From Chloroflexota bacterium (GTDB lineage Bacteria; Chloroflexota; UBA11872; VXOZ01), in contig CAXXVD010000004.1 in assembly GCA_963662335.2 (NCBI GenBank), positions 160,001 through 224,000 of the forward strand: a DNA stretch of 64,000 nucleotides. Direction: 5' to 3'. A program made the position numbers and the translations under genes. Position 1 is the stretch's first letter. Every line of letters begins with the position of its first letter. Below the pieces are notes generated by a model. That model worked only from the letters and a program-made list of their open reading frames with translations. It was not told the origin of the DNA and ran no database searches. Below, piece by piece: positions 12,491 to 64,000 of the stretch.

Positions 12491-12647
12491 ATCAGGCACG
12501 GTGTAGTTCCTCATTATGTCTTAGGCGACGGCATGGGGGCTGACCCCCGCTGCTTGCCAAATGACGCCCTCCCTCTCAGACAGGTCGCTTGCGCGGCCAA
12601 ACCCCTGCGTAATCTGCTATCGATATCCCGCTATTCCAGGAGCCTCC

Positions 12648-13616
12648 ATGAAAACCCTAACTCCATCGCAGACTGCTAACCCGCATCCCCTCAGCCAGGA
12701 TTGCCGCCAGTTCCTGGACTACTGCGGCTACCTCAACCGCTCGCCGCAGACGGTGCGGACGTACGCGCAGATGCTGGACGAACTGGTGGGCTACTGCGAG
12801 AAGACGAACCGCCCGGTCGCGCGCGTGGAAGACCTGACGCTGCCCGTAGTCACGGCGTTCCTGGCGTGGAAGCGCACCCACACCAGCGCGTCCACGTTGG
12901 CAAAGTACGCCTCGTGCGTGCGCAGCATGTTGCGCTACTTCAGCCTGCACGAGGACCGCGCCGTGCTGGCATACGACAAGGTACAGTTGCCCAAATTGCA
13001 ACGCCACGCGCCGCGCAACGTGCCAACCGCCGAGGACGTGGTGCGCCTCTTCCGCGCCATCCCGCAGGATTCACCGCAAGGACTGCGCGACCGGGCGCTG
13101 GTGATGCTCTTCTTCTCGACGGGTCTGCGCTTGGCGGAACTCTGCGCCCTCGACCGCGCCGACCTACCTCAGGAGCGCCTGGGCGCGGAGGAACTCATGC
13201 AAATCATCATCCGGGGCAAGGGCGACAAAGACCGGCCGGTCTTCCTGCAGCAAGGCGCGCAGCTTGCGGTGCGGGAATACCTGGCGGCCCGCGAGGACGA
13301 GTTTTCCCCGCTCTTCATCCGCTACCGCCCCGGCATGGCGGCAGAGGATGACGCCCAGGACACGGAGAAGCGGCTTTCACCCCGCATGGTGCGTAAGATC
13401 ATCACGCAACACGCCCGGCGTTCCGGCGTGGGGCACCTGGCGCCCCACGCGCTGCGGCACGGCTTTGCCGTAGACCTCCTGCGCAACGACGTGAACTTGC
13501 GCGTAATTCAAGAGCTTCTCGGCCATTCCAGCCTCTCCACCACGCAAATCTACACCCACCTGGTGAACCGCGCCCTGGCTGACGCCGTGCGCCATCGGGT
13601 CGATCCGGTGAGCTAG
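12648..13616 (+). CDS. Tyrosine recombinase, XerC/XerD family
   Basis: TGLRLAEL (R), GKGDKDR (K), PHALRH, QELLGH, TTQIYTH (Y); N-terminal SAM-like domain; AGGAG RBS. Confidence 0.92.
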   Translation: MKTLTPSQTANPHPLSQDCRQFLDYCGYLNRSPQTVRTYAQMLDELVGYCEKTNRPVARVEDLTLPVVTAFLAWKRTHTSASTLAKYASCVRSMLRYFSLHEDRAVLAYDKVQLPKLQRHAPRNVPTAEDVVRLFRAIPQDSPQGLRDRALVMLFFSTGLRLAELCALDRADLPQERLGAEELMQIIIRGKGDKDRPVFLQQGAQLAVREYLAAREDEFSPLFIRYRPGMAAEDDAQDTEKRLSPRMVRKIITQHARRSGVGHLAPHALRHGFAVDLLRNDVNLRVIQELLGHSSLSTTQIYTHLVNRALADAVRHRVDPVS

Positions 13617-19071: not shown

Positions 19072-19190
19072 CCTTGGGCAACGGCCTATTTTCCCACACA
19101 GTCGCCCGTGCAGTATCGTCGGTGCTGAGGGACTTAACTACCGTGTTCGGGATGGGAACGGGTGTACCCCCCTCGCCTTGTCACCCAAGG
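19072..19190 (-). rRNA. rrf: 5S rRNA
   Basis: Minus strand CCTTGGGTGACAAGGCGAGGGGGGTACACCCGTTCCCATCCCGAACACGG...TTGCCCAAGG. Confidence 0.95.
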
Positions 19191-19485
19191 AGATTTGACT
19201 CAGGTATGAAGTGCTGCCGCGTTGGTGTTGACCGCAGCCCGCAAGCGGGCCCGGCAAACCGCACGGCGCACATTGTGAACGTGCACCGGTGAACAATGCG
19301 CAAGTCGTGGAAATGCAGAACTCCAATTTTGCCGATTCGACGCGCGGCTAAGTCCTCGACCATTAGTACCGCTCGGCTGAACGCGTTACCGCGCTTACAC
19401 CTGCGGCCTATCAACCAGATCATCTCTCTGGGGTCTTACCTCTCGCCGCAAAGCGGTCGAGAGTGGGGAACCTAATCTTGAGGCT

Positions 19486-19518
<33 letters not shown>

Positions 19519-19576
19519 ATTCCGCACGTAGCTACCCAGCTATGCCTCTGGCGAGACAACTGGTACACCAGCGGTG

Positions 19577-19608
<32 letters not shown>

Positions 19609-19636
19609 CTCCTCGCAAGTTCCCTGCGCCTGCGGA

Positions 19637-19683
<47 letters not shown>

Positions 19684-19686
19684 GCG

Positions 19687-19721
<35 letters not shown>

Positions 19722-19797
19722 GCTCCAGCCCCAGGATGCGCTGAGCCGACATCGAGGTGCCAAGCCTCCCCGTCGCTATGAACGCTTGGGGGAGATA

Positions 19798-19828
<31 letters not shown>

Positions 19829-19990
19829 ATAATCCACGGCCCTTCCACTCGGAACCGTAGGGTCACTAAGCCCGACTTTCGTCCCTGCTCGACGTGTATG
19901 TCTCGCAGTCAAGCTCCCTTGTGCCTTTACACGCTAAGGCTGATTTCCATCCAGCCTGAGGGAACCTTTGGGCGCCTCCGTTATCTTTTG

Positions 19991-20026
<36 letters not shown>

Positions 20027-20284
20027 CTGTCCCCCTCCCGGATCACGGCAAGGGGTTAGAATAAGGATCGTAGAAGGGTGGTATTTCACCATTGCCTCCC
20101 CAATCCCCAAGAGGAAAGGTTCACAGGCTCCCACCTATCCTACGCATCGACGGCCCCGATCCAATGCCAAGGTGCAGTAAAGCTCCACGGGGTCTTTTTG
20201 TCCTTCCGCAGGTAACCAGCATCTTCACTGGTACTTCAATTTCGCCGGGTCCCCTGCTGAGACAGTGCCCAACTCGTTACGCCA

Positions 20285-20323
<39 letters not shown>

Positions 20324-20999
20324 CGGTACATCGCGGCGTCTCCGCCGCAACTTATCCCACTCTGTTTCCAGAGGGGCCGGACTTTCTCTTCACTCGTCCT
20401 CTGTTCATCTGGCCGGCGATCGCGCGGATCTCGGCTATGCCTTCGGTCGTCACGTGCGTCCCACGCTCCATGAGCAGCAGGATGCGCCGGAATTTGATGA
20501 AGTCCACACGCTTCTTGGAGCGCAGTTCGTGCTTCTCAAAGAACGGAATAATCCGTTCCCGGAGGTGTTGCACGCTGCGCACCCGATAGCACATGCGGTC
20601 ACCGTGGTTTCTACGCACTACTCCACACCCAAAGAAAGCCTTGAGTTGGTAGAGCAGTTGCGCGTCGCGTTCATGCTGCACCACGGTAAATTCAGGCAGC
20701 ACCTGAAAACCGGAGGTCATTTCGTCGTGGCGATTGATGCCCACAAAGAAGCACCCTTCTCCATCGACGAAACCGCAGATCCATTGCGCCGTCAACCGTG
20801 AAGACGAGGCCGGACGTAAAGTCTCTGAGGGTTCTCTCGTTTCGGTCATGCGAGAGCCTTCCCTGCGGATTGTCCCCATGTCCGCCAGGCTTCTTACTGC
20901 TTGCGCGCCGCGCGGAAGCGCGGCCTGCAAACGAGTACCTGATGGCTGTGCGAGGAGTTTCCCGCATATGGTCCGGTTTTACTAAGGCTCGCGAAGTGA
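20324..20999 (-). mobile_element. Group I intron (IB-like) at 23S position 1931 (E. coli numbering)
   Basis: Interrupts CCTAAGGT^AGCGAAATT; P1 CUAAGGU/GCCUUAG with U-G at the splice site; terminal G; P/Q/R/S elements AUAUGCGGGAAA, AAUCCGCAGG, UCAGAGACUUUAC, AAGAGAAAGUCC; P3 CCGGAC/GUCCGG. Confidence 0.93.
20352..20849 (-). CDS. Single-motif LAGLIDADG homing endonuclease
   Basis: WICGFVDGEGCF, FTVVQH, LKAFFGCGVV, IIPFFEKHELRSKKRVDF; start uncertain (GGAAGG before ATG 20849). Confidence 0.9.
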   Translation of the reverse strand: MTETREPSETLRPASSSRLTAQWICGFVDGEGCFFVGINRHDEMTSGFQVLPEFTVVQHERDAQLLYQLKAFFGCGVVRRNHGDRMCYRVRSVQHLRERIIPFFEKHELRSKKRVDFIKFRRILLLMERGTHVTTEGIAEIRAIAGQMNRGRVKRKSGPSGNRVG

Positions 21000-21216
21000 A
21001 CCTTAGGACGGTTATAGTTACCGCCGCCGTTCACCGGGGCTTCCCGTCAGGGCGTGAACCCCTCTAGTTAACCTTCCGGCACCGGGCAGGCGTCAGCCCC
21101 CATACATCAGCTTTCGCTTTCGCGGAGACCTGTGTTTTTGTTAAACAGTCGGTTGGGCCTCTTCAGTGCCACCGCGGCTCGCTAGCCGGCGCAAGGCCGG
21201 AGCACGCGCCGCGGTA

Positions 21217-21249
<33 letters not shown>

Positions 21250-22546
21250 GAGTTCCTTAGCAGAGGGTCTCCCGCTCACCTTGGGACATTTACCCCCGCC
21301 CACCAGTGTCGGTTTGCGGTACGGGCGCCCATATTCTGGCTAGAGGCTTTTCTTGCAGGCTGGGCTCAAAGGAATCGCCCTTGACGATTGTCGCGGACTC
21401 TCCATCGCTTCTCGGCGTTTGGGGTAGAGCGGCGGATTTACCTGCCGCTCCCGCCTACCAGCTTGGACGTGTATAGCCAAGAACACGCTCCTCCTACCCT
21501 GCCCGGTCCCCCCTTCGCTCATAACGAACACGGGCGGTTCCGGAATATCAACCGGATGTCCATCGCCTACGCCATATTGGCCTCGGCTTAGGCCCGACTA
21601 ACCCTCAGTGGACGAACCTTCCTGAGGAAACCTTGGGCTTACGGTGAGCCGGATTCTCACCGGCTAACGCTACTCATGCCGACATTCGCACTTCCCTGCG
21701 CTCCACCCGTCCTTTCGGTCGGGCTTCGCCGCCCAGGGAACGCTCCCCTACCCGGCGGCTGCTCCCGTAGGATTGCCGCCGCCCTAGCTTCGGTACCAGA
21801 CTTAAGCCCCGTTGAATTTTCGGCGCCAGACGGCTTGACCAGTGAGCTGTTACGCACTCTTTAAAGGATGGCTGCTTCCAAGCCAACCTCCTGGCTGTCC
21901 GGGCTATCCGACATCCTTTCCCACTTAGTCCGGATTTAGGGACCTTAGCTGAGGGTCTGGGTTGTTTCCCTTTTGACGATGAAGATTATCCCCCACCGTC
22001 CCACTCCCAGGCAACGTGTACACGGCATTCGGAGTTTGGTTGGGTTTGGTAACCGTTTTGGCCCCTAGCCCATCCAGTGCTCTACCTCCGCGACACTTAA
22101 ACCTGAGGCTGCACCGCAATGCATTTCGGGGAGAACCAGCTATATCTGAGTTCGATTGGCATTTCACCTCTAGCCACAGCTCATCCCCCAGTTTTGTAAC
22201 ACTGGTGGGTGCGGGCTTCCACGAGATATTACTCTCTCTTCACCCTGGCCATGGCTAGCTCACTCAGTTTCGGGTCTACTCCACGCGACTGGATCGCCCT
22301 GTTCGGACTCGCTTTCGCTACGGCTCCGGCCCTCCGACCTTAGCCTTGCCACGCATAGTAACTCGTCGGCTCATTCTCCAAAAGGCACGCCATCAGGCAT
22401 TCCGCCTCATAATGCGGGCTCAACGCCCCCGCGCGCCGCGCCTCCCGAAAGAAGCGCAGTTTGCGGGCACGCCGTCCCAGCAAGGCGGCATAGCCCTCTG
22501 ACTGCTTGTAGGCGTACGATTTCAGGTTCTGTTTCACTCCCCTCCC

Positions 22547-22577
<31 letters not shown>

Positions 22578-23196
22578 CGTTCGCTATCGGTCGCCAAAGG
22601 TGTTTAGCCTTGGGAAGTGGGCTCCCCAGCTTCCCACAGGGTTACACGTGTCCCGTGGTACTCAGGCACAGCAACGAGAGAGCCGTGGCTTTCGTGTACG
22701 GGGCTCTCACCCTCTCTGGCGGGCCGTTCCAGGCCCTTCTACTAACCACAGCTTTTCTCCAACTCTCCGGGCCCCTTGCAGAGGGCCCTGTTGCGGCCTC
22801 CAACCCTCACGCTGCAACGGCTGCAACCTATCGCACAGCGTGAGTTTAGGCTCATCCCCTTTCGCTCGCCACTACTCAGGGAATACTCTCTCTTCCTCGC
22901 CCTACTAAGATGATTCAGTTCGGGCGGTTCCCCCCGCAGGTCTATTAATTCAACCTGCGGTGACGAGGCATCACCCTCGCCGGGTTTCCCCATTCGGGCA
23001 CCTGCGGATCAAAATCTGCTGACGACTCCCCGCAGCTTTTCGCAGTCAACCGCGCCCTTCATCGGCCTTTGGCGCCAAGGCATCCGTCGCACGCCCTTAG
23101 TAACTTAGCCTGCTTCGAACCGGCAAAATTGAAGTTCTGCTTGCGCATATTCACCTGTTAACGTGCCGCCCCCACTCGCGCAAGGGCGCATCCCCT

Positions 23197-23333: not shown

Positions 23334-24776
23334 GTGAAGATTGCCTGTATACTCATTACCCACCCGCGCGCCAAGTGCGAACTGAGGCGGCAGCCGGAAC
23401 TGGCAGCAGTCCCGGCTGTTATCGTAGATCGTTCTTCAGGCAGCCCGCAGGTTATCGATGTCTTCCCGGCCGCTACCGGGGTGGCAGCGGGTATGTCGCT
23501 GGAGGAGGCACTCTCCCACAATGCCGATACCGTCGTCATCGAAGCCAATGAACCGGCGTACCGGCGGGTTTTCCGGCAGGTGCTTACCTCCCTCCAGCAA
23601 GTCAGTGATCGGGTGGAACATGCGGCGCTGGGCGTTGCGTACGTGCGCCTTGACGGACTTGAAACCCTCTATGGCGGTGAAGAGCGGGTCGTCGCTGCGC
23701 TGTTGAATGCCATCCCCGCGGATCTCACGCCGCGCGTGGGCGTGGCAGACGCTAAATTTCCCGCTCTAGTCGCGGCCCAAGCCAGCCGCGCGGGTGAGGT
23801 AACGCGAGTACCCGAGTATGCGGCCGCGTTCTTAGCGCCACATCCCGTTACGCTGCTGCCGCTCGCTCCCGCAGTGCACGAGCGTCTGCAACGCTTCGGC
23901 TTACGCACCTTGGGCGATGTGGCGGCCATGCGCGTGGACCAATTGAGCAACCAGTTTGGCGCTGACGGTACCAAGGCCTGGCAACTCTGCCACGGCATTG
24001 ACGAGGAACTGTTTATCCCGCTGAAGCATGAGGAGTCCGTCACCGCCCACGTTACTTTGCCATTTGTCTCCACCTCTCTGGAACTCTTCTTGGTGACGCT
24101 GGAAGGTCTGCTGAAGAGTGCCTACGCGCAGCCGCAGATGCGGGGACGCTATGCAGAGCAAGCCATCATACAGTGCAGCCTCTTTCGGTCGCAGCCGTGG
24201 GAGAAAGTGGTCAACTTCAAGCACGGCGTCGGCTGTGAGGGGGCCGCGCGCATTATCAGAAGCCGTCTGGAAGCCGACTATCCGCCCGCGCCGATTGAAG
24301 AAATCACGCTTACCGTAGCGAATCTCACGGGCGAGTCCGCCACGCAAATGGGACTGCTCCGCGATGTCCGCAAAGATAGAAATGACCGTCTGGTAGAGGC
24401 GGACAGGCAATTCCAAGCCCGTATGCAGGGCAGGCGGGCGCTGTTCCGCGTGGTGAACATCGCGCCCTGGCATCCGGCGCCGGAGTTGCGCGCGCTACAG
24501 ATACCTATCGATCCGGCAGCGAAGGACAGCTTGAGACCGCTTGCCAATCCTACGGCTGTAGAGGTGCAAGTAAGCGAGGATAACCAACCCCTAGCAGTAC
24601 GCTTGAAGAACCGCTGGCATCAGGTAGCCAGCATCGACGATAAGTGGTGCTTCGACCTCTGGTGGCTGGCCGCGCCGCTTACGCGCGCCTACTATCGGGT
24701 GCGGCGGGCGGATGGGGTCCCGCTCACCCTGTTCCGTGACTGGAGAGATGGCTGCTGGTATCGGCAAGTCTCATAG
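23334..24776 (+). CDS. imuB: ImuB-like inactive Y-family DNA polymerase with C-terminal DUF6504-like domain
   Basis: GVAAGMSLEEAL, RVGVADAKF, LQRFGLRTLGDV; no DMD catalytic motif; QMGLL clamp-binding-like motif; W..DLWW...RAYYRV...LFRD...WY tail. Confidence 0.85.
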   Translation: MKIACILITHPRAKCELRRQPELAAVPAVIVDRSSGSPQVIDVFPAATGVAAGMSLEEALSHNADTVVIEANEPAYRRVFRQVLTSLQQVSDRVEHAALGVAYVRLDGLETLYGGEERVVAALLNAIPADLTPRVGVADAKFPALVAAQASRAGEVTRVPEYAAAFLAPHPVTLLPLAPAVHERLQRFGLRTLGDVAAMRVDQLSNQFGADGTKAWQLCHGIDEELFIPLKHEESVTAHVTLPFVSTSLELFLVTLEGLLKSAYAQPQMRGRYAEQAIIQCSLFRSQPWEKVVNFKHGVGCEGAARIIRSRLEADYPPAPIEEITLTVANLTGESATQMGLLRDVRKDRNDRLVEADRQFQARMQGRRALFRVVNIAPWHPAPELRALQIPIDPAAKDSLRPLANPTAVEVQVSEDNQPLAVRLKNRWHQVASIDDKWCFDLWWLAAPLTRAYYRVRRADGVPLTLFRDWRDGCWYRQVS

Positions 24777-24785
24777 AGCAGCCCG

Positions 24786-27700
24786 ATGTCTTCCACAACA
24801 CCGCAGTCCGCCGGATACGTTGAGTTGCATGCCAAGAGCTTCTACTCCTTCGGGATAGGAGCCTCTCACACTCACGAGTTGCTCGCCCAAGCCAAAGCGT
24901 TCGGTTATGGTGCGCTCGCCCTGTCCGACACTAACCTCTGCGGGGCTCTGGAGTTCGCGCGCCTTGCTAACAGCTTGGAAATTCGGCCCATCACCGGCGG
25001 CGAGTTTGCCCTGCTGGATGGTTCGCGAATCGTCTTGCTGGCCAGGACGCGCGAAGGCTATGCCAACCTTGCGCGGTTGTTCACGCTGGCGAACGCCGTC
25101 GACCGCCGAGAGCCACGTTTGGATCCCGCGCATCTTCCTACGCATGCTACAGGCCTGATTCTGCTCACCGGTGGTCGCGATGGACCGCTGGCGCGCTTGG
25201 GGGAGGCTGGCTGTCACGAAACGGCGCTGACACGGCTGAATGAATACGCAACATGGTACAGCCAAGACGCCGTATACGTGGAGTTGCAGCAGAACTTCCT
25301 GCGCGGCGACACCAAGCGCAATTGCGAGCTAGCGCGACTTGCCAGCGACGCAGGCGTGCCTGTGGTGGCTACCAATGATGTGCATTATCACGCAGCGGAG
25401 CGTTATCGGCTGCAGCACGCCCTTGAAGCCGCCAAGCGCAATATCACCATCGACCAGGCCCTCCCGCATCTCAAACCGAATCATCACCTCCACTTGAAGC
25501 CCTTTGAACAGATGGAGCACATCTTCAAAGACGTTCCTGAAGCTGTTGCTAACACCGTGAAGATCGCGCAACAATGCGATTTCGATCTCAGCACCGATCT
25601 TGGTTACACCCTCCCCGATCCCGCTGTGCCGGAGGGCTTCACACCCTCACAGCACTTGCGCTCGCTCTGCGAAGCGGCGGCAGTGCGGCGCTATGGAGCG
25701 CTAACCGCATTGGTGCAGGCGCGGCTCGACGAGGAGTTTGACCTGATCGAGAAGCACAATCTGGCAGGCTTCCTGTTGCTGTACCGGGAGATTGTGAGCG
25801 TTGCACAGCAGATCATGGTGGAGCGTGGACTAGTAGACCCCGAGACACCGCTAGAGGAGCGCCCTCCAGGGAGAGGGCGCGGCTCATCGGTGGCGCTCCT
25901 CGTCGGCTACCTCATCGGTATTAGTCACGTAGACCCGCTCAAGTGGAATCTCACCCTGGAGCGCTTCATATCTGCCGACATGACCATGCTGCCGGACATC
26001 GACCTGGACTTTCCACGTGAAATCAGGGACGCGCTGCTGGAGCGGGTGCACCGCCACTTTGGGTCGGAGTACGCCGTGCTTGCCAGCGCCATCGCTACCT
26101 ATTCGGTGAAGGGCATCATTCAAGACCTGGGAAAAGCGCTGGGGCTGCTCAAGGAAGACCTGTCGCTCCTTTCCAAACAACTCCACTCGCACCATGCCGA
26201 CAATCTCAAAGAAGAAATGCTGGCGCTGCCCGCCTTTCGGGATAAGGTGACAGCCGCGGGGTGGCGTGATCTCATCCAGCTTGGGCCTGCGCTCATGGAT
26301 GCGCCCAAAGGAATCGGCCAGCACGTCGGCGGCATGATCCTGAGCGATAGACCTATTTCTGCGCTCGTGCCCATCCGTGCCGGCGCCATGGAAGGCCGCT
26401 ACATCATGGACTGGAACAAGGACTCCGTGGCGGATGCCAACTTTGCCAAGATCGACCTACTCTCGCTGCCCGTCCTCGACCAGATCGAGGAGGCGCTGGA
26501 TCTGATTGAAGCCAGAGAAGGAAAACGGCCGGACCTAAGCCGCATTGATCCTGAGGACCCGCAGGTGTACGACATGATCAACGCGGGGCGGTCTATCGGC
26601 ATCTTCCTGCTCCAATCGCCTGCGCAACTCAAGATGGGCCAGCGCCTACGTTCGCGGACTCTGCTCGACTTGGCCTATCAAGTGGCGCTCATCCGTCCCG
26701 GTGTGGGCGTACAGGGAAGCGCTGTTTCGCAGTTCGTAGAGCGGTATCGGCACGGCGTCTCGTGGGACTACGACCATCCCTTGGAGCAACGCGCACTGGA
26801 ACGGGGCTACGGCATCATCGTATGGCAGGAGCAGGTGGTGCAACTCATTATGGACGTGGCCGGCATGACGGCGGCGCAAGCCGACGAAGTGCGGCGGGCG
26901 TTCACTAAGCCCAACAACGCACACCTGATCGCCATGCACTGGCAGCAATTCTTGGAAGGCGCGCAGCGTAGAGGAGTGCCGGAACCGATTGCGGAGAAGA
27001 TCTTCGGCAAGATCAACGGCCACTACATGTTTCCGGAGAGCCATAGCCATGCCTTTGCCATCACCGCTTATCAGGCTGCCTGGCTGAAGCGCTATTACCC
27101 ACTGGAATTCTTCATTGGCTTGATGAACAACCAGCCCATGGGCTTCTATCCACTGGAAACGCTCAAGCAGGACGCGCAGAGCTTTGGAGTGTCCTTTCTA
27201 AATCCGTGCGTGAACCACAGTCAGGTACGCTGCACCCCCGCTGAGGACGCCGTGCTGCTGGGTTTGCAGTTCGTCAATAACGTCGGCGCGGAGATGGCGC
27301 AGCGCATCGTGGCCGAGCGGGAGAGCGGCGGCCCATACACGGGAGCGAGTGACTTTGTGAGGCGGACGGGTGTGAAATCCCAGACGGTACAGTCATTAGT
27401 CCAAGCAGGCGCATTCGACGCGATTTCGCCGAATCGTCGAGAGGCGTTATGGGACTCAGGTCTCGCCATTCGCCCCGGCAGGCACGGGCAACACGCTTTT
27501 GCTGTGGCTACGGCAGAGAGTGTGCCACGGTTGGCAGACTTCAACGACTTTGAGCGCATGGTGGGCGAGTATGCCGTCATGGGCATCCATCCTAAGGGGC
27601 ACCTGATGGAACACTTCCGGCCCTCACTGGGGCCTAATGTGCTGCCCACTGTCGCGATAGAGGACGTGGCAGAAGGCGAGCGGATCCAGGTAGCCGGATG

Positions 27701-27950
27701 GCCGGTGGCGCGGCAGCATCCGCGCGGCCGGGACGGCACGGTGTTTGTGACCATCGAGGACGAGGTGGGCAGTGTCCAACTCATTCTCTGGCCGCGGGTC
27801 TTTGCCCGCCATCGGAGAGCGCTAGGAAGCCAGGTGATTTTGGCAACCGGCAAGGTGTCGCGCTGGGACGGCACCACAAACGTCATCGTCTCAGCGGTGC
27901 AGGCGCTAGACGCCTCGGTGCCTATGCCCGCCTCCCACGACTGGCATTAG
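24786..27950 (+). CDS. dnaE2: Error-prone DNA polymerase III alpha, DnaE2 (ImuC)
   Basis: YVELHAKSFYSF PHP domain, GRGRGSS, PDIDLD, QHVGG, FPESHS, NQPMGFY, C-terminal SHDWH (SRDFH-like). Confidence 0.93.
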   Translation: MSSTTPQSAGYVELHAKSFYSFGIGASHTHELLAQAKAFGYGALALSDTNLCGALEFARLANSLEIRPITGGEFALLDGSRIVLLARTREGYANLARLFTLANAVDRREPRLDPAHLPTHATGLILLTGGRDGPLARLGEAGCHETALTRLNEYATWYSQDAVYVELQQNFLRGDTKRNCELARLASDAGVPVVATNDVHYHAAERYRLQHALEAAKRNITIDQALPHLKPNHHLHLKPFEQMEHIFKDVPEAVANTVKIAQQCDFDLSTDLGYTLPDPAVPEGFTPSQHLRSLCEAAAVRRYGALTALVQARLDEEFDLIEKHNLAGFLLLYREIVSVAQQIMVERGLVDPETPLEERPPGRGRGSSVALLVGYLIGISHVDPLKWNLTLERFISADMTMLPDIDLDFPREIRDALLERVHRHFGSEYAVLASAIATYSVKGIIQDLGKALGLLKEDLSLLSKQLHSHHADNLKEEMLALPAFRDKVTAAGWRDLIQLGPALMDAPKGIGQHVGGMILSDRPISALVPIRAGAMEGRYIMDWNKDSVADANFAKIDLLSLPVLDQIEEALDLIEAREGKRPDLSRIDPEDPQVYDMINAGRSIGIFLLQSPAQLKMGQRLRSRTLLDLAYQVALIRPGVGVQGSAVSQFVERYRHGVSWDYDHPLEQRALERGYGIIVWQEQVVQLIMDVAGMTAAQADEVRRAFTKPNNAHLIAMHWQQFLEGAQRRGVPEPIAEKIFGKINGHYMFPESHSHAFAITAYQAAWLKRYYPLEFFIGLMNNQPMGFYPLETLKQDAQSFGVSFLNPCVNHSQVRCTPAEDAVLLGLQFVNNVGAEMAQRIVAERESGGPYTGASDFVRRTGVKSQTVQSLVQAGAFDAISPNRREALWDSGLAIRPGRHGQHAFAVATAESVPRLADFNDFERMVGEYAVMGIHPKGHLMEHFRPSLGPNVLPTVAIEDVAEGERIQVAGWPVARQHPRGRDGTVFVTIEDEVGSVQLILWPRVFARHRRALGSQVILATGKVSRWDGTTNVIVSAVQALDASVPMPASHDWH

Positions 27951-28038
27951 GCATAGATCACCCCCCCAACACGCTACGCAAATGTGGGATAATGCGACTG
28001 CATACAGCCGCTCAATGCCATACAAAACGGAGGGGAGC

Positions 28039-28713
28039 ATGTGTGGCAGATATAGCCTAAAAGCGGACATCGCGCAACTCGCCTTGCGATTTGAATTCGC
28101 CGCCGACGAAGTTACATACGAACCGGCCTACAACATCGCGCCCACACAACAGGTGCTCACAGTCACAAACGACGGTGAGCGCAGGGCCGAGCACATGCGC
28201 TGGGGACTCATCCCATCTTGGGCCAAGGACTTGAAAATCGGCTACCGCATGATTAACGCGCGAGGCGAGACCGTAGCGGAGAAGCCCAGCTTTCGCACCG
28301 CGCTGCGCAAACGCCGCTGCTTGATTCTTGCCGACGGTTTCTACGAATGGCAGAAGCTAGGCGGCAAACAGAAGCGACCAATGCGAATTACGCTCAAGTC
28401 GGACGAACCCTTCGCCTTTGCCGGCCTATGGGAGACCTGGAGCGACCCAGAGGGCGGTACAATAAAGTCTTGCGCTATCATCACCACGTCGGCGAATGAG
28501 ACCCTCAGACCCATTCACAATCGAATGCCCGTGATATTGCCCCCGGACATGGAGTCGTTCTGGCTGAATGAGAAGATTGATGACCCCATAGCGTTAAGCA
28601 GCGCACTGGCCCCATACCCCGATGATGACATAGAGGCATTCGAAGTCTCCCGACTGGTGAATAATGTCAGAAACAGAGGGCCTGAAGTGATGTCTCCTGT
28701 CTCAGTAGAGTAA
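28039..28713 (+). CDS. SOS response-associated peptidase (SRAP; YedK/HMCES abasic-site protein)
   Basis: MCGRY start, YNIAPTQ, WGLIP, INARGET, GFYEW, HNRMP. Confidence 0.95.
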   Translation: MCGRYSLKADIAQLALRFEFAADEVTYEPAYNIAPTQQVLTVTNDGERRAEHMRWGLIPSWAKDLKIGYRMINARGETVAEKPSFRTALRKRRCLILADGFYEWQKLGGKQKRPMRITLKSDEPFAFAGLWETWSDPEGGTIKSCAIITTSANETLRPIHNRMPVILPPDMESFWLNEKIDDPIALSSALAPYPDDDIEAFEVSRLVNNVRNRGPEVMSPVSVE

Positions 28714-32215: not shown

Positions 32216-33253
32216 ATGCTGCTTCGCAAGCTATCCAGCGGTTTGAAGGCCGCGTACCGGGGCACGGACGTCAACAGCCGCGTGAGTCGCTTCGATAGCT
32301 GGATGGACCGGGCGCGGGACGCGGACGGCGGCGCGGCGGGCTACGATCACGCCGCCACCGTCAAGGAATACTACGACCTGTGCGGCGAGTTCATGGTGCT
32401 CGGCTGGGGTGAATCCCTCCATTTCGCGCCGCTATCGCCCCAGGAGACTTTGGAAGAGTCCAAACTCCGGCACCAGCGGCTGATGATTTCCAAGCTGGAA
32501 TTGCGCGAGGGCATGAGTGTGATCGACGTCGGCTGCGGCATCGGCGGCCCGCTGCGCCGTGTTGTGCGGGAGGCGGGTGTCAAGGTCCTCGGCGTCAACA
32601 CCAATGAAATCCAGTTGGCAAAGTCGAAGTCGCTGGACGCCGAGGCGGGACTCGACCACATGATCGACTACCTGGCGTGCAGCTTCATGGACATGGACGG
32701 CATCGCCGACGAGACGTTCGACCGCGCATACGCGATCGAATCGACGTGCCACGCGCCGGACAAGGCGGGCGCGTTTGCCGAAATCTACCGCGTGCTAAAA
32801 CCCGGGGCGCTCTTCTGGGGCCAGGAAATGTGCATGACGGACACGTTCGATCCTGCCGACGAGCGGCACCGGGCCATCAAGAGAGAACTGCTGCACGGCA
32901 TCGCGCTCAAAGAGGCCGCGACGTTCGGCGAGGTAGTCCGCGCCCTGGAAACGGCGGGGTTTGAGGTCATCGAGGGGATCGACCGAGGCATTGCGGAGAA
33001 CGGCGCGGCCACGCCGTGGTATCAGCCCATGGTAACCCGGCACGGCACGCTGGGCAGCGCCCTCATCAGAATCCCGCTGGGCCGCCAGGCCATCTTCGGC
33101 GCATCCCGGCTAGCCGAGACGCTGGGCGTCTTCCCCAAAGGCTCCGCCCGCGTCGTCAGGCTGCTGGACCGCACCGCCAACGCCTACGTCGCCGGCGGCC
33201 AGACCGGCATCTTTACGCCGCTGTACTGCTTCCTGGCGCGCAAACCGCTCTAA
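32216..33253 (+). CDS. Sterol 24-C-methyltransferase-like SAM-dependent methyltransferase (ERG6/SMT family)
   Basis: YYDL...GWGESLHFAP, IDVGCGIGGPLR, YAIESTCHAP, EIYRVLKPG, PWYQP, GGQTGIFTPLY. Confidence 0.88.
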   Translation: MLLRKLSSGLKAAYRGTDVNSRVSRFDSWMDRARDADGGAAGYDHAATVKEYYDLCGEFMVLGWGESLHFAPLSPQETLEESKLRHQRLMISKLELREGMSVIDVGCGIGGPLRRVVREAGVKVLGVNTNEIQLAKSKSLDAEAGLDHMIDYLACSFMDMDGIADETFDRAYAIESTCHAPDKAGAFAEIYRVLKPGALFWGQEMCMTDTFDPADERHRAIKRELLHGIALKEAATFGEVVRALETAGFEVIEGIDRGIAENGAATPWYQPMVTRHGTLGSALIRIPLGRQAIFGASRLAETLGVFPKGSARVVRLLDRTANAYVAGGQTGIFTPLYCFLARKPL

Positions 33254-33390
33254 GGACTCTCATTCCGAGCTTCTTGGGCCGGTACGATGGCCCATCAGAT
33301 GCTCAAGCTGGGTCTTTGCCCAGCAAGGTTGCAATACCCATCGCGGGTCCGACTGTGGAACTTAGCAATCTCTTGTCTCACTCGGCCGCG

Positions 33391-33640
33391 TCAGGTTCTT
33401 AATTCTCTCGGCATCTCGTTTGCCACTCTGTCTCCAAGCAATCTCAAGTTCAGTGCGCACGGGCAATCGGGCACATTCCACTCCCGAACGAACGGCGGGC
33501 GCACTACTGCCCGCTGCCGATCCGCCAGATCACTGATGTATCTCCGCTCCCTGTGCAAAAATGGTATCCTTCTGCCAGGGAGGTGGGTTTGGCAGGTACC
33601 TCTCATCCTACCACGCAGGTTCTCTCAATAGGCTCTGCAG
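33391..33640 (-). pseudogene. Possible degenerate IS5-family transposase N-terminal fragment
   Basis: ERRYISDLADRQRAVVRP resembles the RYPSDLTDxxWxxxxP start of IS5 transposases; no intact ORF. Confidence 0.35.
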
Positions 33641-33673
33641 CAGAATCTCACATTGGCTCATTGCGGAGGGACT

Positions 33674-35053
33674 ATGTCAACGGACAACGGGAAACCAGAC
33701 GGGCAGGGGCAATTGCAGGAAAACGCAATTATCGCCCTTCACAACGTATTCCCTGATTTGGAACATCTGGAGAACGTGCTTGCGGCGGATAAGGCGGCAC
33801 TACTGAAAAGCCTCGACGACTTCGAGGCACATGAGACTCTGGAAAGACTTGAGAAACTTGCCGCAGAGCAACGCACAGAGTTTGATGCGCTTGATTTTGT
33901 TGGTCAATTGAGGTTTGGAAGAGGCCGCGACCTCTGGGGCTCGGAGGAGTTCCACTCTGACGTGCTCGCCTGGCTGCTGGACCCAAAGCAAAACCACGGC
34001 CACGGCGACCAGTTCCTAAAGAAATTCCTAAACCGCGCCGGCGTGCGGCTGGCCGGACACTCTCTCGATTGGTCGCAGACAGAAGTGATCCGGGAATGGG
34101 AAAACGTAGTCGCGGGGCAAAAGGGATACTTGGACATTCTGATCGTCAATGAGGCTCATCAGGTTCTGTGTGCCATTGAGAACAAAGTGTTCTCCGCTGA
34201 ACACAGCGAGCAACTGACCCGTTATCGGTTAGCGTTGGACACCGCCTACTCGACGTTCGCCCGATATCACGTGTTCTTGACACCGCGGGGCGACCTGGCT
34301 TACAAAGATGAAGAGAAGGCGTACTGGACACCTCTCACGTACTCCACGGTTTTCGACATCGTCCAAGAGATACTCGAGAGTACCGAAAATTCAACGAACG
34401 AGGACATCCGTGCATTCTTGCGCCAATACGCAACAGCACTGAGGAGAAATATCATGCCCGACACCAGCATTCCACAACTGGCCCGGAGAATCTATCTGGA
34501 GCACCGGGAGGCGATAGACCAAATTGTCGCCCATAAGCCTAAGTACGTGGATGAGACCAAGCAGTGGCTCAAGGAAGCCATCGCACAACAACGCGAGTGG
34601 AAATTAGACAAAGAGGATCCAAATTACGTTCGTTTCCAGTCAACCGAGTGGGACCAGTTCGAAGCAACTCAGACAGGAACCGGGTTTGCCCCGTCAAATG
34701 CCTTGTTTCTTTTCCAGTTTTCGATCTACTCCGACCGCCCTTGGTTTGGTCTTGCGCTCTCTCCTGAGAACGAGGATAACAATCGCCTGAGACAAAGGCT
34801 GTTCGAAGCAGTGCGACAACATCCCCGCCTTTTCAAGCCCAAACCCGCCACGCTGCCTCAGGGTTGGGCGCATTTGCATCAGGAAGCCGAATCTATCCTG
34901 GATGAGGCCGATTGCGGGGTTGGTTGGGATGACGGCAGCACACGCGCCAAGCTTGAAGCGTGGATAGCGTGCTTCGCCGCAAATGAATTCCCCGCAATGA
35001 ACGAGGTCATAGTCAACTGTCTACGCGAATACGAAGCTGAAGAGCAAAGCTAG
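33674..35053 (+). CDS. PD-(D/E)XK nuclease family protein
   Basis: EEFHSDVLAWLLDP...HG.GD.FL, YLDILI, IENKV, EQLTRY, VFLTP; GGAGG RBS. Confidence 0.88.
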   Translation: MSTDNGKPDGQGQLQENAIIALHNVFPDLEHLENVLAADKAALLKSLDDFEAHETLERLEKLAAEQRTEFDALDFVGQLRFGRGRDLWGSEEFHSDVLAWLLDPKQNHGHGDQFLKKFLNRAGVRLAGHSLDWSQTEVIREWENVVAGQKGYLDILIVNEAHQVLCAIENKVFSAEHSEQLTRYRLALDTAYSTFARYHVFLTPRGDLAYKDEEKAYWTPLTYSTVFDIVQEILESTENSTNEDIRAFLRQYATALRRNIMPDTSIPQLARRIYLEHREAIDQIVAHKPKYVDETKQWLKEAIAQQREWKLDKEDPNYVRFQSTEWDQFEATQTGTGFAPSNALFLFQFSIYSDRPWFGLALSPENEDNNRLRQRLFEAVRQHPRLFKPKPATLPQGWAHLHQEAESILDEADCGVGWDDGSTRAKLEAWIACFAANEFPAMNEVIVNCLREYEAEEQS

Positions 35054-35210
35054 TGGATGGTGACTCCACAATACAACGGACCAATCCAACCCAGCGACGC
35101 AGCCCTGGATTTCACCTCAATTGGCCCCCACTCCGTTCCAGCTTCATCGAATCCAACTAAATCCGGGCGACTTCGATCAATACGTCACCATGCGGCTATT
35201 GTCCCGCTAA

Positions 35211-35894
35211 CTAGAACTCAATAACAATCTCTTCTTGCACCAGGTTTCCGTCTGAATCGACGACGCGCGGTTGGGGCTCTACTCTAGGCTTCGGTATGTA
35301 CCCCGCCTCGATTGCTACGGAAAACTCGCCCTGCCCCGCTAGCGCATACGCCAGCATTCGCGTTTCTAATTCGCGTTTAGCACGCTCCTCGTCACTCTCA
35401 TCTTCCGGCTCAGGATGTAAGCCAATCGCGATCAAGAGCCTGTCATCGCGGCAAAAGTCATCTCCGCTAACGCTAAAGTAATGGTTAGTGGCGATGGCGC
35501 GCGCTTGATGTACACGGCGTATCTCCGGCTTATACACAACATAGCCTTCCCCAACTATCAGATTGCCGTTGGCATCGTACCTTTCCCCAATGAACGGGCC
35601 TGGATCAGAGAAACGAAGATATACAGCAAATATCTCCTCATCTGACCGGGTGTCATCCTTCCGCCGACGCCGGAAATCGGCCACTACCTCTTCTTTGAAC
35701 TGGGGGTCATCCATGCGCTCGAGCCAACGCTGGTATCCGGCCTCAACCTCCATGTCTGATAGTTTGGGGTCATAGATGGATTCGTCCTGGCGGTCTTCGG
35801 CCATCACCTTCCTCCTTGTTTTTGCGATGTCTGCCAGTGCGACCATCTCCTCATCATCAATTTCCTCAGTAGTGAGGCACATGTTGGCTTCCAA
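35211..35894 (-). CDS. Hypothetical acidic protein
   Basis: 227-aa ORF, atypical codon usage; start may be ATG 35882. Confidence 0.55.
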   Translation of the reverse strand: MEANMCLTTEEIDDEEMVALADIAKTRRKVMAEDRQDESIYDPKLSDMEVEAGYQRWLERMDDPQFKEEVVADFRRRRKDDTRSDEEIFAVYLRFSDPGPFIGERYDANGNLIVGEGYVVYKPEIRRVHQARAIATNHYFSVSGDDFCRDDRLLIAIGLHPEPEDESDEERAKRELETRMLAYALAGQGEFSVAIEAGYIPKPRVEPQPRVVDSDGNLVQEEIVIEF

Positions 35895-35902
35895 ACGCGA
35901 TA

Positions 35903-36280
35903 CTAGAGAGACGGGCTTCGGCGGGCCGGATTCACCGGATAGTCCTCCGGCTTGCCCGTGTCGCCGGGTTGGATGACGAAGTCGCGGCGGTCGCGGTAGA
36001 GGCGCGCGCGGTTTATGACGTAGTTCACGCCGGGTTGCAGTTCATCGTAGTGGGTCATCAGCCAGTACTTGTGGTCGCCGATGAAGAGGTAGGTGTTGTT
36101 CATGCGAAAGAAGCGGCCGGCCACGCCCTCGCCGGCGCGGAAGCGCTCGCGCACCGCAGCCAGCAATTCCTGCTGGCCGTCGCTCTCGGACATCACGTAC
36201 TCGTGGGGCCACGTATCGCGGTACATAACCGCCTCCCGCCAGGGCGCGCGGGCGATCAATTCCGTCAGTTTCAATAGCAT
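35903..36280 (-). CDS. Hypothetical protein
   Basis: 125-aa ORF with AGAGG RBS; W...WPHEYV...YL...YW.M...INRA pattern. Confidence 0.7.
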   Translation of the reverse strand: MLLKLTELIARAPWREAVMYRDTWPHEYVMSESDGQQELLAAVRERFRAGEGVAGRFFRMNNTYLFIGDHKYWLMTHYDELQPGVNYVINRARLYRDRRDFVIQPGDTGKPEDYPVNPARRSPSL

Positions 36281-36603
36281 TCCTCTCTATCTCCCATACT
36301 TTGGCTGGCAACGCCGCGCACGTGCAACGCAGTCCGTTCGCTGGGAATCACCGGCGCAAGCGCAAAGCCTTAGAACGCTGCGCGCTGGACCCCGTTCGCC
36401 CAGGCAGGGCGGCGCTACGCTGAGGCAGACCGTGAGCGGCCGCCAGTGCGCCGGCGCGTGCAACGATAAAACCGATGCGCTTCGCACCGAAGCGCATCAG
36501 CGAAAAATGACCGCAGGGCATTCCCCCAACGGCCACAACGCAAAACACCCAAGAACGCCGCAAACCGGAACCACGGCGTGCAGGTCTTGGGCTTCTCTTA
36601 GTT

Positions 36604-36679
36604 TGGTGGACCCGATCGGGGTCGAACCGACGACCTCGTGAATGCCATTCACGCGCTCTCCCAACTGAGCTACGGGCCC
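36604..36679 (-). tRNA. tRNA-Ala(GGC)
   Basis: GGGCCCGTAGCTCAGTTGGGAGAGCGCGTGAATGGCATTCACGAGGTCGTCGGTTCGACCCCGATCGGGTCCACCA; G3-U70 pair, encoded CCA. Confidence 0.96.
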
Positions 36680-61782: not shown

Positions 61783-63243
61783 TCACAGGCTCATGCGTTC
61801 GTCCGCCCGCGCCTTCCACTTGGCGTAGTTGGGCGAGCGCAGCAATGCGCCGTCCGGTTGCGGAACCAGTTGGCCGTTCTGCCCGCGCGGATCGCCTCGC
61901 TCCTCATTCACGCGGGCCAAGAGCGCGCGCGCCTCTTCTATGCGGCCGCGCGCCGCGGCGTTGCCGGCCAGATTGCGGCACTCCTGCGGGTCTTCCACCA
62001 GGTCGAAGAACCGTTCCTTGCCGGTGTGGTGGAACCAGGTGTACTTCTCCCGCTTGGTTGCGATGAACTGCATGCCGAATTCCCGGCCGTGCAGGTTCGT
62101 CTGTTCGCCTTGCAGGTAGTCGCGCCAGCCGGCCGTTTCACCCCGCGCCAACGGCAGCAGGCTCTTGCCGTCAACGCAATCCGGTATTTCCACCCGCGCC
62201 GCGTCCAGCACCGTCGGCATGAGGTCGCGCACCTCGATGATCTCGTCGCAGACCCCGCCGCGCTCTTCATCCCACGTGTCCGGGTACTTGATGAAGAAGG
62301 GAATGCGCGCGGAGCCGTCGTTGGAGTAGCCCTTGCGCCACAGGCAGTGGTCGCCGAGCATGTCGCCGTGGTCGGAGGTAAAGATGAACAACGTATTTCG
62401 GATCGCCTCGCGCTGCCGCCAACCGTACTCATAGAGGAACCGGCCCACCTGGTGGTCGATGAACGAGATGCTGCCGTAGTAGGCTGCCCGCGTGCGGCGC
62501 ACCTGCGCCGCCGTTGCCCGCCCTCGCCAGGTCGTCGTGCTCGTGATCGGCTCATCGAACTCCGCCGCCCAATCGCCCATGGGCGGCATGGGGATGTCCG
62601 GGTTGTCCTTGTACATGTCGAAATAGACCGGCGGCGGGTCGTACGGCGCGTGCGGGCGCGTGAACGAGAGCCACAGAAAGAAAGGACACGTGGGGTCGCG
62701 CCGCTCGACGAACTTGACTGCCTCGCTCGCGGTCCAATGGGTAGCGTGCAGGTGCTCCGGCAGGTGGCTGGGACGCGCCATCCAGCTATTCCACTCCAAG
62801 CCGTGGTCCAGGTCGCCGAACTTGCCGGCGGTCTGTTCTCGCAGCCAGGACATGTAATCGGTCCAAAGACCCCGGCCGGTGCTGTCCTGCACGGCTTCGT
62901 AGTACCCGTACAACGCCCGTCGCGGGAACTGGTCGGACTTGCCGATGCTGACAGTGTGGTACCCGGCCTTCATCAACTCACCCGCCAAGGTGGCGGGAAA
63001 GTCCAGCGCGTCGTAGCCCGCGCCGCCGCCCAAGCGACCGTGGCTCCACTGGTCCATGCCCGTCATCATGGCGGCCCGCGACGGCAGGCAGGACGGCGAA
63101 GCGGTATAGCACCGCGTGAACTTGACGCCCCGCGACGCCAGGTCGTCGAGATACGGGGTCTCAAGCACCGGATTCGCGTAGCCGATGCAGTCTGAACGCT
63201 GCTGATCGGTGACGATAACGACGATGTTTGGGCGTTTTGGCAT
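61783..63243 (-). CDS. Sulfatase (arylsulfatase/choline-sulfatase-like, Cys type)
   Basis: RPNIVVIVTDQ, CLPSRA (CxPxR), PHAPYD, SDHGD..G.H...K; start at MPKRPN. Confidence 0.93.
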   Translation of the reverse strand: MPKRPNIVVIVTDQQRSDCIGYANPVLETPYLDDLASRGVKFTRCYTASPSCLPSRAAMMTGMDQWSHGRLGGGAGYDALDFPATLAGELMKAGYHTVSIGKSDQFPRRALYGYYEAVQDSTGRGLWTDYMSWLREQTAGKFGDLDHGLEWNSWMARPSHLPEHLHATHWTASEAVKFVERRDPTCPFFLWLSFTRPHAPYDPPPVYFDMYKDNPDIPMPPMGDWAAEFDEPITSTTTWRGRATAAQVRRTRAAYYGSISFIDHQVGRFLYEYGWRQREAIRNTLFIFTSDHGDMLGDHCLWRKGYSNDGSARIPFFIKYPDTWDEERGGVCDEIIEVRDLMPTVLDAARVEIPDCVDGKSLLPLARGETAGWRDYLQGEQTNLHGREFGMQFIATKREKYTWFHHTGKERFFDLVEDPQECRNLAGNAAARGRIEEARALLARVNEERGDPRGQNGQLVPQPDGALLRSPNYAKWKARADERMSL

Positions 63244-63340
63244 TAAGTTCGCTCCTAGGCTACTTCGTCTTTCCCGGTTACTACTATAACGAAGTGCGCT
63301 GCTACCAGCCCGACGTGGCGTTCGCCTACGGTATAGAGAA

Positions 63341-63444
63341 GCGGGGGACAAGCCCCCGCGCGACACTGCTCTTATCGCCAAGAGGCAAGTTACGAGCCCC
63401 GCCCCCGTCCGTTCGTCCTGAGCCTGTCGAAGGATGAACGGACG
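63341..63444. repeat. REP-like palindromes
   Basis: Inverted family C copy at 63341 and CGTCCGTTCGTCCTGAGCCTGTCGAAGGATGAACGGACG hairpin. Confidence 0.65.
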
Positions 63445-63490
63445 AGGGCGGGCGGCGTCTCTTCTCTTGACAGTGCGAAATGCCGCCGCA

Positions 63491-64000
63491 TCAAGCCAGC
63501 AGGAAGAGCGGGTCCTTCTCCAGAATTCGCACGCCGATTTCCAGAAACGGCTTGGCCTCGATGAGGCGCAAGGTGGAGTCGCCGATCGTGCCCACGCGCA
63601 TGATGCCGTGTTCGAGACAGACGGCGTCCATCTTTTCGTACGCGCGGGGATGGTTGGGCAAGTGAGCGCGGGTCGGTACGGTGACGATGCGGCCATCCAG
63701 ATCTATCACCATGGGGTAGAAGACCTCTTTGCTCAAGATCGGCGCGCCGCCGGTCTCCTCGATGGTGTGGATGGTCGTATTGCTATTCTGGCCGACGCCC
63801 AGCAAGAGCACTTTGCCGCCGCCGACGCAATTGCGGTGCCACGGCGTGCCGGGGCCGGTGGGATAGATGGCGGTTTCCGCGCCGGCCAGCAGCCAATCGC
63901 GCCGTGCGCCAATGGCGTGCAGCGTATGGCAGGCGGAAAGCGATGGCCGCGCCTCCGGCCGCTGGCGCAGCGCATTGGTGATGGCGCCCAGTTTCGACGG
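63491..64000 (-). CDS. AAC(3)/YokD family N-acetyltransferase (5' end outside window)
   Basis: Frame open to the edge: PSKLGAITNALR...GPGTPW...GGKVLLLGVG..SNTTIH.IEE. Confidence 0.82.
   Translation of the reverse strand, partial: PSKLGAITNALRQRPEARPSLSACHTLHAIGARRDWLLAGAETAIYPTGPGTPWHRNCVGGGKVLLLGVGQNSNTTIHTIEETGGAPILSKEVFYPMVIDLDGRIVTVPTRAHLPNHPRAYEKMDAVCLEHGIMRVGTIGDSTLRLIEAKPFLEIGVRILEKDPLFLLA

Follow-up and report, generated by a model that had tools for sequence, protein, structure and literature searches.

Why would a bacterium without genes for squalene, hopanoid or sterol synthesis carry a gene of the sterol C-24 methyltransferase (SMT, ERG6) family? The question is raised by a gene in a stretch of 64,000 nucleotides from a Chloroflexota bacterium (assembly GCA_963662335.2, contig CAXXVD010000004.1, positions 160,001 to 224,000 of the forward strand), here called the window and numbered from its first letter. 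The answer we favour, with a probability of roughly 0.55, is that the encoded enzyme methylates an exogenous sterol, most plausibly that of a sponge host, as part of a dispersed module. The gene and the parts of it referred to below are as follows.

32216..33253, plus strand: gene for an SMT/ERG6-family S-adenosylmethionine (SAM)-dependent methyltransferase of a variant subfamily, 345 residues, stop codon included (from translation, Pfam, homologues and dN/dS)
32372..32425, plus strand: Region I, residues 53-70, Y-D-L-C-G-E-F-M-V-L-G-W-G-E-S-L-H-F, with the GWG..HF core retained
32525..32551, plus strand: Region II SAM-binding motif DVGCGIGGP, residues 104-112, fully canonical and at least 85% conserved in variant and canonical sequences alike
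32822..32830, plus strand: Q203-E204-M205 replacing the canonical Y-E-W (Y223Q and W225M in yeast numbering; from the group comparison)
33077..33247, plus strand: C-terminal Pfam domain Sterol_MT_C, residues 288-344, 57.9 bits against a cut-off of 21.7

The reading frame is free of internal stops. Translation from a GTG 51 bases upstream (32165) would lengthen the protein by 17 residues to 362; relatives are 345 residues long and begin with M-x-L-R-K-L-S, which makes the ATG at 32216 the likelier of the two. The G+C content at third codon positions (0.85) is typical for genes of this genome, and the gene is under purifying selection, with dN/dS values of 0.155–0.216 against eight orthologues, three of which share its detached arrangement (see below). 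A scan for promoters and terminators around it found none. All of the ERG6/SMT signatures on which the preliminary description of this DNA had based its assignment (YYDL...GWGESLHFAP, DVGCGIGGP, YAIESTCHAP, RVLKPG, PWY and GGQTGIFTP) are present in the translation, as are the two motifs it had singled out as odd, MVLGWG and QEM, and the search with the Sterol_MT_C model that it had proposed gave the match listed above. Other Pfam matches were to Methyltransf_11, further general class I methyltransferase models and CMAS (60.4 bits), and no NCBIfam family reached its cut-off. Searched with Sterol_MT_C, the whole genome returned a single match, the window gene, at 60.4 bits.

Domain, library matches and cluster names all bear out membership of the SMT family, and the protein groups with SMTs and not with the tocopherol, CMAS or other methyltransferases. 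A library of representatives at 50% identity contained 250 proteins at E ≤ 1e-30, and canonical SMT motifs are found in most of the full-length sequences among the 108 listed hits of 300–480 residues that were inspected. Apart from the protein itself, the top representatives are of the Sterol_MT_C type (1e-75 to 1e-40), against just 2e-21 for the best solved non-SMT methyltransferase, MitM, which was also the top match of a PDB sequence search that found no solved SMT. Identity to representatives with fungal-type motifs is ~33–38%, and the nearest named Atlas clusters, whose names are automatic, are a bacterial 'sterol methyltransferase family' followed by Ascomycota sterol 24-C-methyltransferase. 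In a FastTree phylogeny of 116 full-length rows the window protein is one of a clade of 13, and the branch between these and the other 103 has a length of 0.62 and a support of 100; the rows are nameless and the tree has no outgroup, so that a clade inside the other SMTs and one sister to them look alike in it. Judged by sequence, the window gene is a divergent SMT-family enzyme and not a canonical ERG6.

How it diverges was examined by comparing 123 variant-clade sequences with 102 canonical representatives, using a yeast numbering anchored on 84-GWGxxFHF-91, 125-DxGxGxxGP-133, E195 and G217 (as given in the available part of bioRxiv 10.64898/2025.12.19.695621), with other positions assigned by offset counting and alignment. 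In Region I the yeast residues T78, Y81, E82, Y83 and F89 are replaced by G57, M60, V61, L62 and L68, and position 249 is Ile, so that the window protein has neither the aromatic Region I (Y-E-Y/F-G-W-G) nor the Y-E-W of canonical members. The SAM-binding D-x-G-x-G-x-x-G-P, E195 of Region III and G217 of Region IV are in place. From the 25 residues conserved in functional SMTs it retains 23, including the whole SAM motif, E195 (E175 here), G217 (G197 here), W286 and the C-terminal G/L/G/F/P set, the two changes being T78G and F89L (G57 and L68). Common to both groups are Y53, W64, H69, F70, D104-P112, G126, Q133, D169, E175, K195-G197, G248 and W268. The positions that separate them, in the numbering of the window protein, are these.

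Position 60: M in the clade (99%), Y in 85% of canonical sequences
Position 61: V in the clade (88%), E in 80% of canonical sequences
Position 68: L in the clade (100%), F in 86% of canonical sequences
Position 87: Q in the clade, E in 86% of canonical sequences
Position 156: S in the clade, D in 89% of canonical sequences
Position 203: Q in the clade (100%), Y in 72% of canonical sequences
Position 205: M in the clade (100%), W in 85% of canonical sequences
Position 226: M in the clade (L in the window protein), E in 79% of canonical sequences

MVLGWG and QEM are fixed across a deep subfamily and are not quirks of one gene, the clade-wide swap being one of conserved aromatic or acidic residues for aliphatic or neutral ones (Y81M, E82V, F89L, Y223Q and W225M).

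If the enzyme acts on a sterol, where might that sterol come from? The preliminary description had noted no squalene, cyclase or hopanoid gene near the SMT, and Pfam searches of the 43 open reading frames (ORFs) of the window agree, with no sterol gene either. Its broader view that the organism makes no sterols also held when the genome (3.23 Mb in five contigs, 96% complete) was searched, with no match to SQHop_cyclase_C, SQHop_cyclase_N, SQS_PSY, squalene epoxidase or FA_hydroxylase. Throughout the window's order, a single genus of 17 genomes of which nine are single contigs, the counts for both cyclase and SQS_PSY are 0/17. De novo synthesis of sterols or hopanoids by the window organism is ruled out by these absences from genome and genus. 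The genome presents the tail end of a sterol pathway with the front end absent: the SMT, two ERG4_ERG24 reductases, a cytochrome P450 nearest to CYP51 and a KshA-like Rieske protein, and no cyclase.

A survey of the class (84 genomes at ≥85% completeness) found Sterol_MT_C in 38 genomes, often as two paralogues scoring ~85–94 bits and, like that of the window, ~58–64 bits. A cyclase over cut-off is present in 40 of the 84 (34/36 in one family, f3), and the cut-off of the oxidosqualene cyclase model is passed in none, the best score being 274 bits against 851, at squalene-hopene cyclase loci. Eleven of the 38 SMT-positive genomes, including all seven of the window's genus, have no cyclase over cut-off, so the SMT substrate is not in general a product of the cell's own cyclase. 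The possibility that sister families hold oxidosqualene cyclases, making the class a sterol producer, is ruled out by the zero count in the class and by the sole cyclase examined, that of genome G050, which is a squalene-hopene cyclase (TIGR01507, 735 bits). This sister-family genome has a full hopanoid cluster (L094, G050:C1:1604000-1623000) of two SQS_PSY genes (hpnC-D), HpnE, shc and HpnH, followed by DXS; by comparison, the window's genus has lost it. In another genome of the survey, G057, the variant-SMT cluster and an SMT of canonical type (Sterol_MT_C 83.8 bits) are ~5 kb apart (L098/L099, G057:C1:1360000-1395000); this genome has a squalene-hopene-type cyclase and no oxidosqualene cyclase.

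The gene had been described as stand-alone, which is true within the window; it is nevertheless a member of a conserved multi-gene module, the other members of which lie on contigs C1 and C3 of the same genome. On C1 the following genes, all intact, form a cluster (C1:712475-723420, locus L102) from which the SMT, there in most relatives, is missing.

C1:712475-713833, plus strand: flavin adenine dinucleotide (FAD) oxidase
C1:713820-714875, minus strand: KshA-like Rieske protein
C1:715170-717188, plus strand: GPP34-P450 fusion
C1:717701-720175, plus strand: sterol-sensing domain (SSD)-MMPL transporter 1, divergently placed relative to transporter 2
C1:720946-723420, minus strand: SSD-MMPL transporter 2

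The two ERG4_ERG24 paralogues, likewise intact, are on C3 (121 and 124 bits); such pairs stand in tandem in G050 and G005, in G050 within 10 kb of the SMT cluster. The closest solved relatives are delta-14-sterol reductase (4QUV, 9e-34) for the reductase, several CYP51 entries (5e-18) for the P450 half of the fusion and KshA (9e-24) for the Rieske protein. The genome has a second P450 (C2, 327 bits), which is similar to terpene P450s and not to CYP51.

The arrangement in relatives was surveyed by calling ORFs in 80 of their loci, with 8-kb flanks, and clustering the products, which gave four recurrent neighbours of the SMT.

61/80 loci: GPP34 (GOLPH3)-cytochrome P450 fusion, ~677 residues (Pfam GPP34 and p450)
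59/80 loci: MMPL/resistance-nodulation-division (RND) transporter, ~825 residues (Pfam Sterol-sensing and Patched, the SSD)
54/80 loci: Rieske protein, ~350 residues (Pfam KshA_C)
36/80 loci: FAD amine-oxidase-like protein, ~475 residues (Pfam Amino_oxidase)

The gene order is MMPL-SMT-GPP34-P450 in 41 of the 71 loci in which the crude gene caller recovered the SMT. Detachment from this cluster, with a GFO/IDH/MocA oxidoreductase upstream, is restricted to the window and three relatives (L003, L006 and L009). That the SMT is an orphan gene without partners is ruled out by the recurrent neighbours and by the partner genes in its own genome. At one further locus, L004, a sulfatase adjoins the SMT cluster.

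Within the genus the SMT and genes of the module co-occur. All seven SMT-positive genomes have at least two uninterrupted ERG4/24 genes and a long GPP34 gene (that of G004 with a stop codon), and in five others (G003, G010, G011, G015 and G016) SMT, ERG4/24 and long GPP34 are all absent. ERG4/24 copies in G006 and G009 have in-frame stops, G012 retains an ERG4/24 fragment alone, and G001 and G002 have uninterrupted ERG4/24 and long GPP34 without an SMT. As the genomes are kin, this co-occurrence may reflect few events.

These losses invite the view that the window gene, moved from its old place and without a present function, is itself in the process of being lost. It stands apart from the cluster that holds it in most relatives and adjoins a low-GC island at a tRNA-Ala gene, 10/17 genomes of the genus have no SMT, and G004, G006 and G009 hold pseudogenes of ERG4/24 and GPP34-P450, besides the fragment in G012. 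We nevertheless consider it extremely unlikely: the frame is uninterrupted and encodes every SAM-binding and core residue, the low dN/dS values extend to the three relatives in the same detached arrangement, and every partner gene in the genome is intact.

Relatives of the window protein are numerous and, where their origin can be read, largely from sponges. A word-indexed search returned more than 2285 homologues, the best 120 of equal length and 74–98% identical, and the few named ones are methyltransferases from Chloroflexi metagenome-assembled genomes (MAGs). In GTDB, scanned with one genome for each species, at least 475 relatives were confirmed, the best 80 of which comprise 75 Chloroflexota records, mostly Dehalococcoidia and one SAR202; with 84 stretches confirmed in the metagenome collection of the Joint Genome Institute, they make up a large subfamily. 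Several relatives' MAG titles carry bin labels that we take to be those of sponge microbiome studies. Eighty of the metagenome stretches are listed, under 10 record prefixes, and 37 of these contigs fall under LXNI01, LXNJ01, Ga0209021 and JGIcombinedJ30088, which are Sarcotragus foetidus, Petrosia ficiformis and Aplysina aerophoba metagenomes (Brown 2023, PMC10070321, Supplementary Table 4). What the preliminary description had stated of homologues in sponge-associated bacteria is supported by the close relatives, most of which stem from sponge metagenomes or sponge-type MAGs. Records of Rhodospirillaceae, Gemmatimonadaceae, Dadabacteria and Acidimicrobiia (L068, L073, L078 and L081) also hold the variant SMT, at 72–73% identity and with a locus GC of 51%–70%; two have MMPL and Rieske neighbours, and L068, one of these, also GPP34-P450. 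That records assigned to other phyla hold the gene points to its horizontal spread between symbionts living together or, alternatively, to mis-binning.

Taken together, the scattered gene set, found mostly in sponge-associated bacteria, probably modifies host-derived sterols. The SMT would be a SAM-dependent C-methyltransferase that moves a methyl group onto a carbon–carbon double bond of a sterol-like lipid, and in a bacterium without squalene, hopanoid or sterol synthesis such a substrate would have to come from outside, most plausibly from the sterols of a sponge host. The two SSD-RND/MMPL transporters may move the lipid, and the two ERG4/24-like reductases could reduce the methylene made by the methyltransferase; the GPP34-P450 with its CYP51-nearest P450 half, the KshA-like Rieske oxygenase and the FAD amine-oxidase-like enzyme would be the remaining parts.

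The preliminary description had further supposed that the substitutions change the substrate or the number of methylations. Published mutagenesis does tie these sites to both; it predicts fewer methylations, probably one, and not more. In the available part of the preprint (bioRxiv 10.64898/2025.12.19.695621), aromatic-to-Leu changes in Region I of soybean SMT1 abolish the second methylation, G249I in a Chlamydiae SMT leaves C28 products and no C29 or C30, and docking places Y81 and position 249 within 5 Å of the sterol side chain. If the delta-24 bond of the side chain is the target, the aliphatic Region I residues and Ile249 of the window protein therefore predict a single methylation.

Could the same residues mark a sterol methyltransferase of altered regiochemistry or substrate, acting at C-26, on another double-bond isomer or on a ring carbon of a 3-ketosteroid? 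The nematode enzyme STRM-1, a member of the SMT family, methylates ring carbon 4 in a sterol auxotroph. The long and fully supported branch that separates the clade from the other 103 representatives, the concentration of substitutions at Y81, position 249 and Y-E-W, and the FAD oxidase and Rieske oxygenase that travel with the SMT would all fit, and the enzymes of C-26 methylation are stated to be undiscovered (PMC10070321). We hold this to be improbable all the same, as the substitutions could just limit a C-24 enzyme to one methylation, in the manner of soybean SMT1 and Chlamydiae G249I.

Several observations weigh against sterol modification by the module. The activity of the variant clade is read from sequence comparison, and the host association of the window's genome from its relatives. 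Every protein of the module is only remotely similar to sterol enzymes that have been characterised, and no NCBIfam family was above cut-off for the reductases, the Rieske protein, the FAD oxidase or the RND transporter. The presence of the SMT in only 7/17 genomes of the genus, with pseudogenes in some, implies that the module is dispensable. Replacement of Y81, E82 and F89, and of the consensus residues E87, D156, Y203, W205 and E226, could signify a different substrate or a different chemistry, and deviations among the 25 conserved residues were noted in 7/11 SMTs that failed to methylate desmosterol or 24-methylenecholesterol (available part of bioRxiv 10.64898/2025.12.19.695621).

A related doubt concerns the lipid itself, which might be a hopanoid such as diploptene, squalene, another polyprenoid or an unsaturated acyl chain, 'sterol' reflecting no more than the history of the family. 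In Botryococcus, SMT-family enzymes methylate linear triterpenes. The residues replaced in Region I throughout the clade are the aromatic and acidic ones thought to handle the sterol side chain, the N-terminal half of the protein scores as well on CMAS as on any model, and the adjacent RND transporter weakly resembles HpnN (107 bits, far below cut-off). In sister families, moreover, the module co-exists with hopanoid synthesis, as in G050 with its hpnC-D-E, shc and hpnH and in f3 with its near-universal cyclase. Against this, the cyclase-free SMT-positive genomes, together with the lack of SQS_PSY in the window's genus, indicate that an endogenous hopanoid or squalene is not the common substrate, the nearest solved relatives of the partner enzymes are all steroid enzymes, and in G057 a canonical SMT lies beside the variant cluster. 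A non-sterol substrate is therefore, in our estimation, unlikely, and methylation of a host sterol remains the reading we prefer.

SMTs of bacterial sponge symbionts have been published, as has one from a bacterium unable to make sterols (PMC10070321), and SMT1/ERG6 is enriched in Ircinia MAGs according to the available part of Kelly et al. 2022 (PMC9531527). The window protein shares with the SMTs of Brown and colleagues (PMC10070321; available part of bioRxiv 10.64898/2025.12.19.695621) the methyltransferase domain followed by Sterol_MT_C, the SAM motif and the 23 of 25 residues, and its subfamily is present in Aplysina, Petrosia and Sarcotragus metagenomes mined by those authors. It differs in belonging to a separate deep clade, with M-V-L for Y-E-Y, F89L, T78G and Ile249, and the variant SMT has as neighbours SSD-RND, GPP34-P450, Rieske and FAD oxidase genes instead of an oxidosqualene cyclase, sdmA/B or erg genes. 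The 80 listed variant-clade contigs include no contig of an assayed SMT that the two Brown papers name, a comparison that covers the enzymes named in the texts consulted. Searches of the main text and readable supplements of Brown 2023 gave no match to Chloroflexi, SAR202, Dehalococcoidia, the clade motifs, MMPL, GPP34, Golgi, Rieske or RND.

The nearest precedents for the inferred role are the SMT of a Chlamydiae MAG (PMC10070321) and, in the available part of the source, sterol reductases of intracellular bacteria such as Coxiella, likewise tail-end enzymes in the absence of a cyclase, for which modification of the host's sterols has been proposed. In vitro the Chlamydiae SMT, a canonical one, adds as many as three carbons, whereas the window SMT belongs to a divergent subfamily with a module, in a Chloroflexota symbiont lineage of extracellular type whose genome measures ~3.2 Mb. 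With eukaryotic ERG6/SMT1 the window protein has in common the family, the overall length, Regions II–IV and the C-terminal domain; it differs in the replaced Region I Y-E-Y and Y-E-W and in a genome that lacks a sterol pathway. In the literature we found no description of a deep subfamily with replaced Region I and Y-E-W residues, nor of a linkage of SMTs to GPP34-P450, SSD-RND transporters, Rieske proteins, FAD oxidases or reductases.

The physical link to GPP34-P450 is of particular interest, as this fusion has been presented as a hallmark of sponge symbiosis, and the role suggested for it is of a very different kind. According to the available part of PMC11706023, every one of the 663 multi-domain GPP34 proteins is encoded in the genome of a sponge symbiont, and 656 of the 663 are GPP34-P450 fusions. 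The same fusion is the commonest neighbour of the variant SMT and is present in the window's genome; the role proposed there is evasion of phagocytosis, and the words sterol, methyltransferase, MMPL and lipid do not occur in the main text of that paper. Its linkage to the SMT, RND, Rieske and reductase module points instead to lipid chemistry. Here, then, is a subfamily with altered substrate-pocket residues, in bacteria unable to make sterols, tied to that hallmark. If the module modifies host sterols, it would give the GPP34-P450 hallmark a concrete biochemical function, add a symbiont route to sponge sterol diversity and serve as a natural experiment in the control of SMT specificity by Region I and position 249. 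The use of side-chain-alkylated steranes as eukaryote or sponge biomarkers is already made harder by bacterial SMTs. A bolder proposal, which we think highly improbable, is that the clade does not act at C-24 and is the missing 'unconventional' sterol methylase of sponge holobionts (acting, for example, at C-26, C-27 or the ring), and the module a horizontally spread symbiont pathway turning host sterols into sponge-typical ones such as 26-methyl sterols; were it true, part of the 'sponge' sterane record would be bacterial and GPP34-P450 a lipid enzyme, not a phagocytosis effector.

The remainder of the window holds several features of other kinds. Directly downstream of the SMT, a low-GC stretch (33287-36600, ~54% against ~64%) ends at a tRNA-Ala(GGC) gene (36604-36679, minus strand) and contains a PD-(D/E)XK (PDDEXK_4) nuclease gene (33653-35053) and ORFs without a family; the stretch resembles an island integrated at the tRNA gene, with the relocated SMT as its neighbour. 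The 23S rRNA gene (19344-23110, minus strand) is split by a group I intron (20358-21014, Rfam 61 bits) whose ORF (20355-20930, minus strand) encodes a LAGLIDADG homing endonuclease (Pfam 88 bits), with a 5S rRNA gene at 19073-19188 and no 16S gene in the 64 kb. Genes for an ImuB-like Y-family polymerase, a DnaE2-type error-prone polymerase III alpha subunit and an SRAP (SOS-response peptidase) protein stand in a row at 23334-28713 (plus strand), in what looks like a damage-inducible mutagenesis cassette. A tyrosine recombinase gene of the phage integrase family lies at 12561-13616 (plus strand), and a sulfatase gene at 61783-63696 (minus strand).

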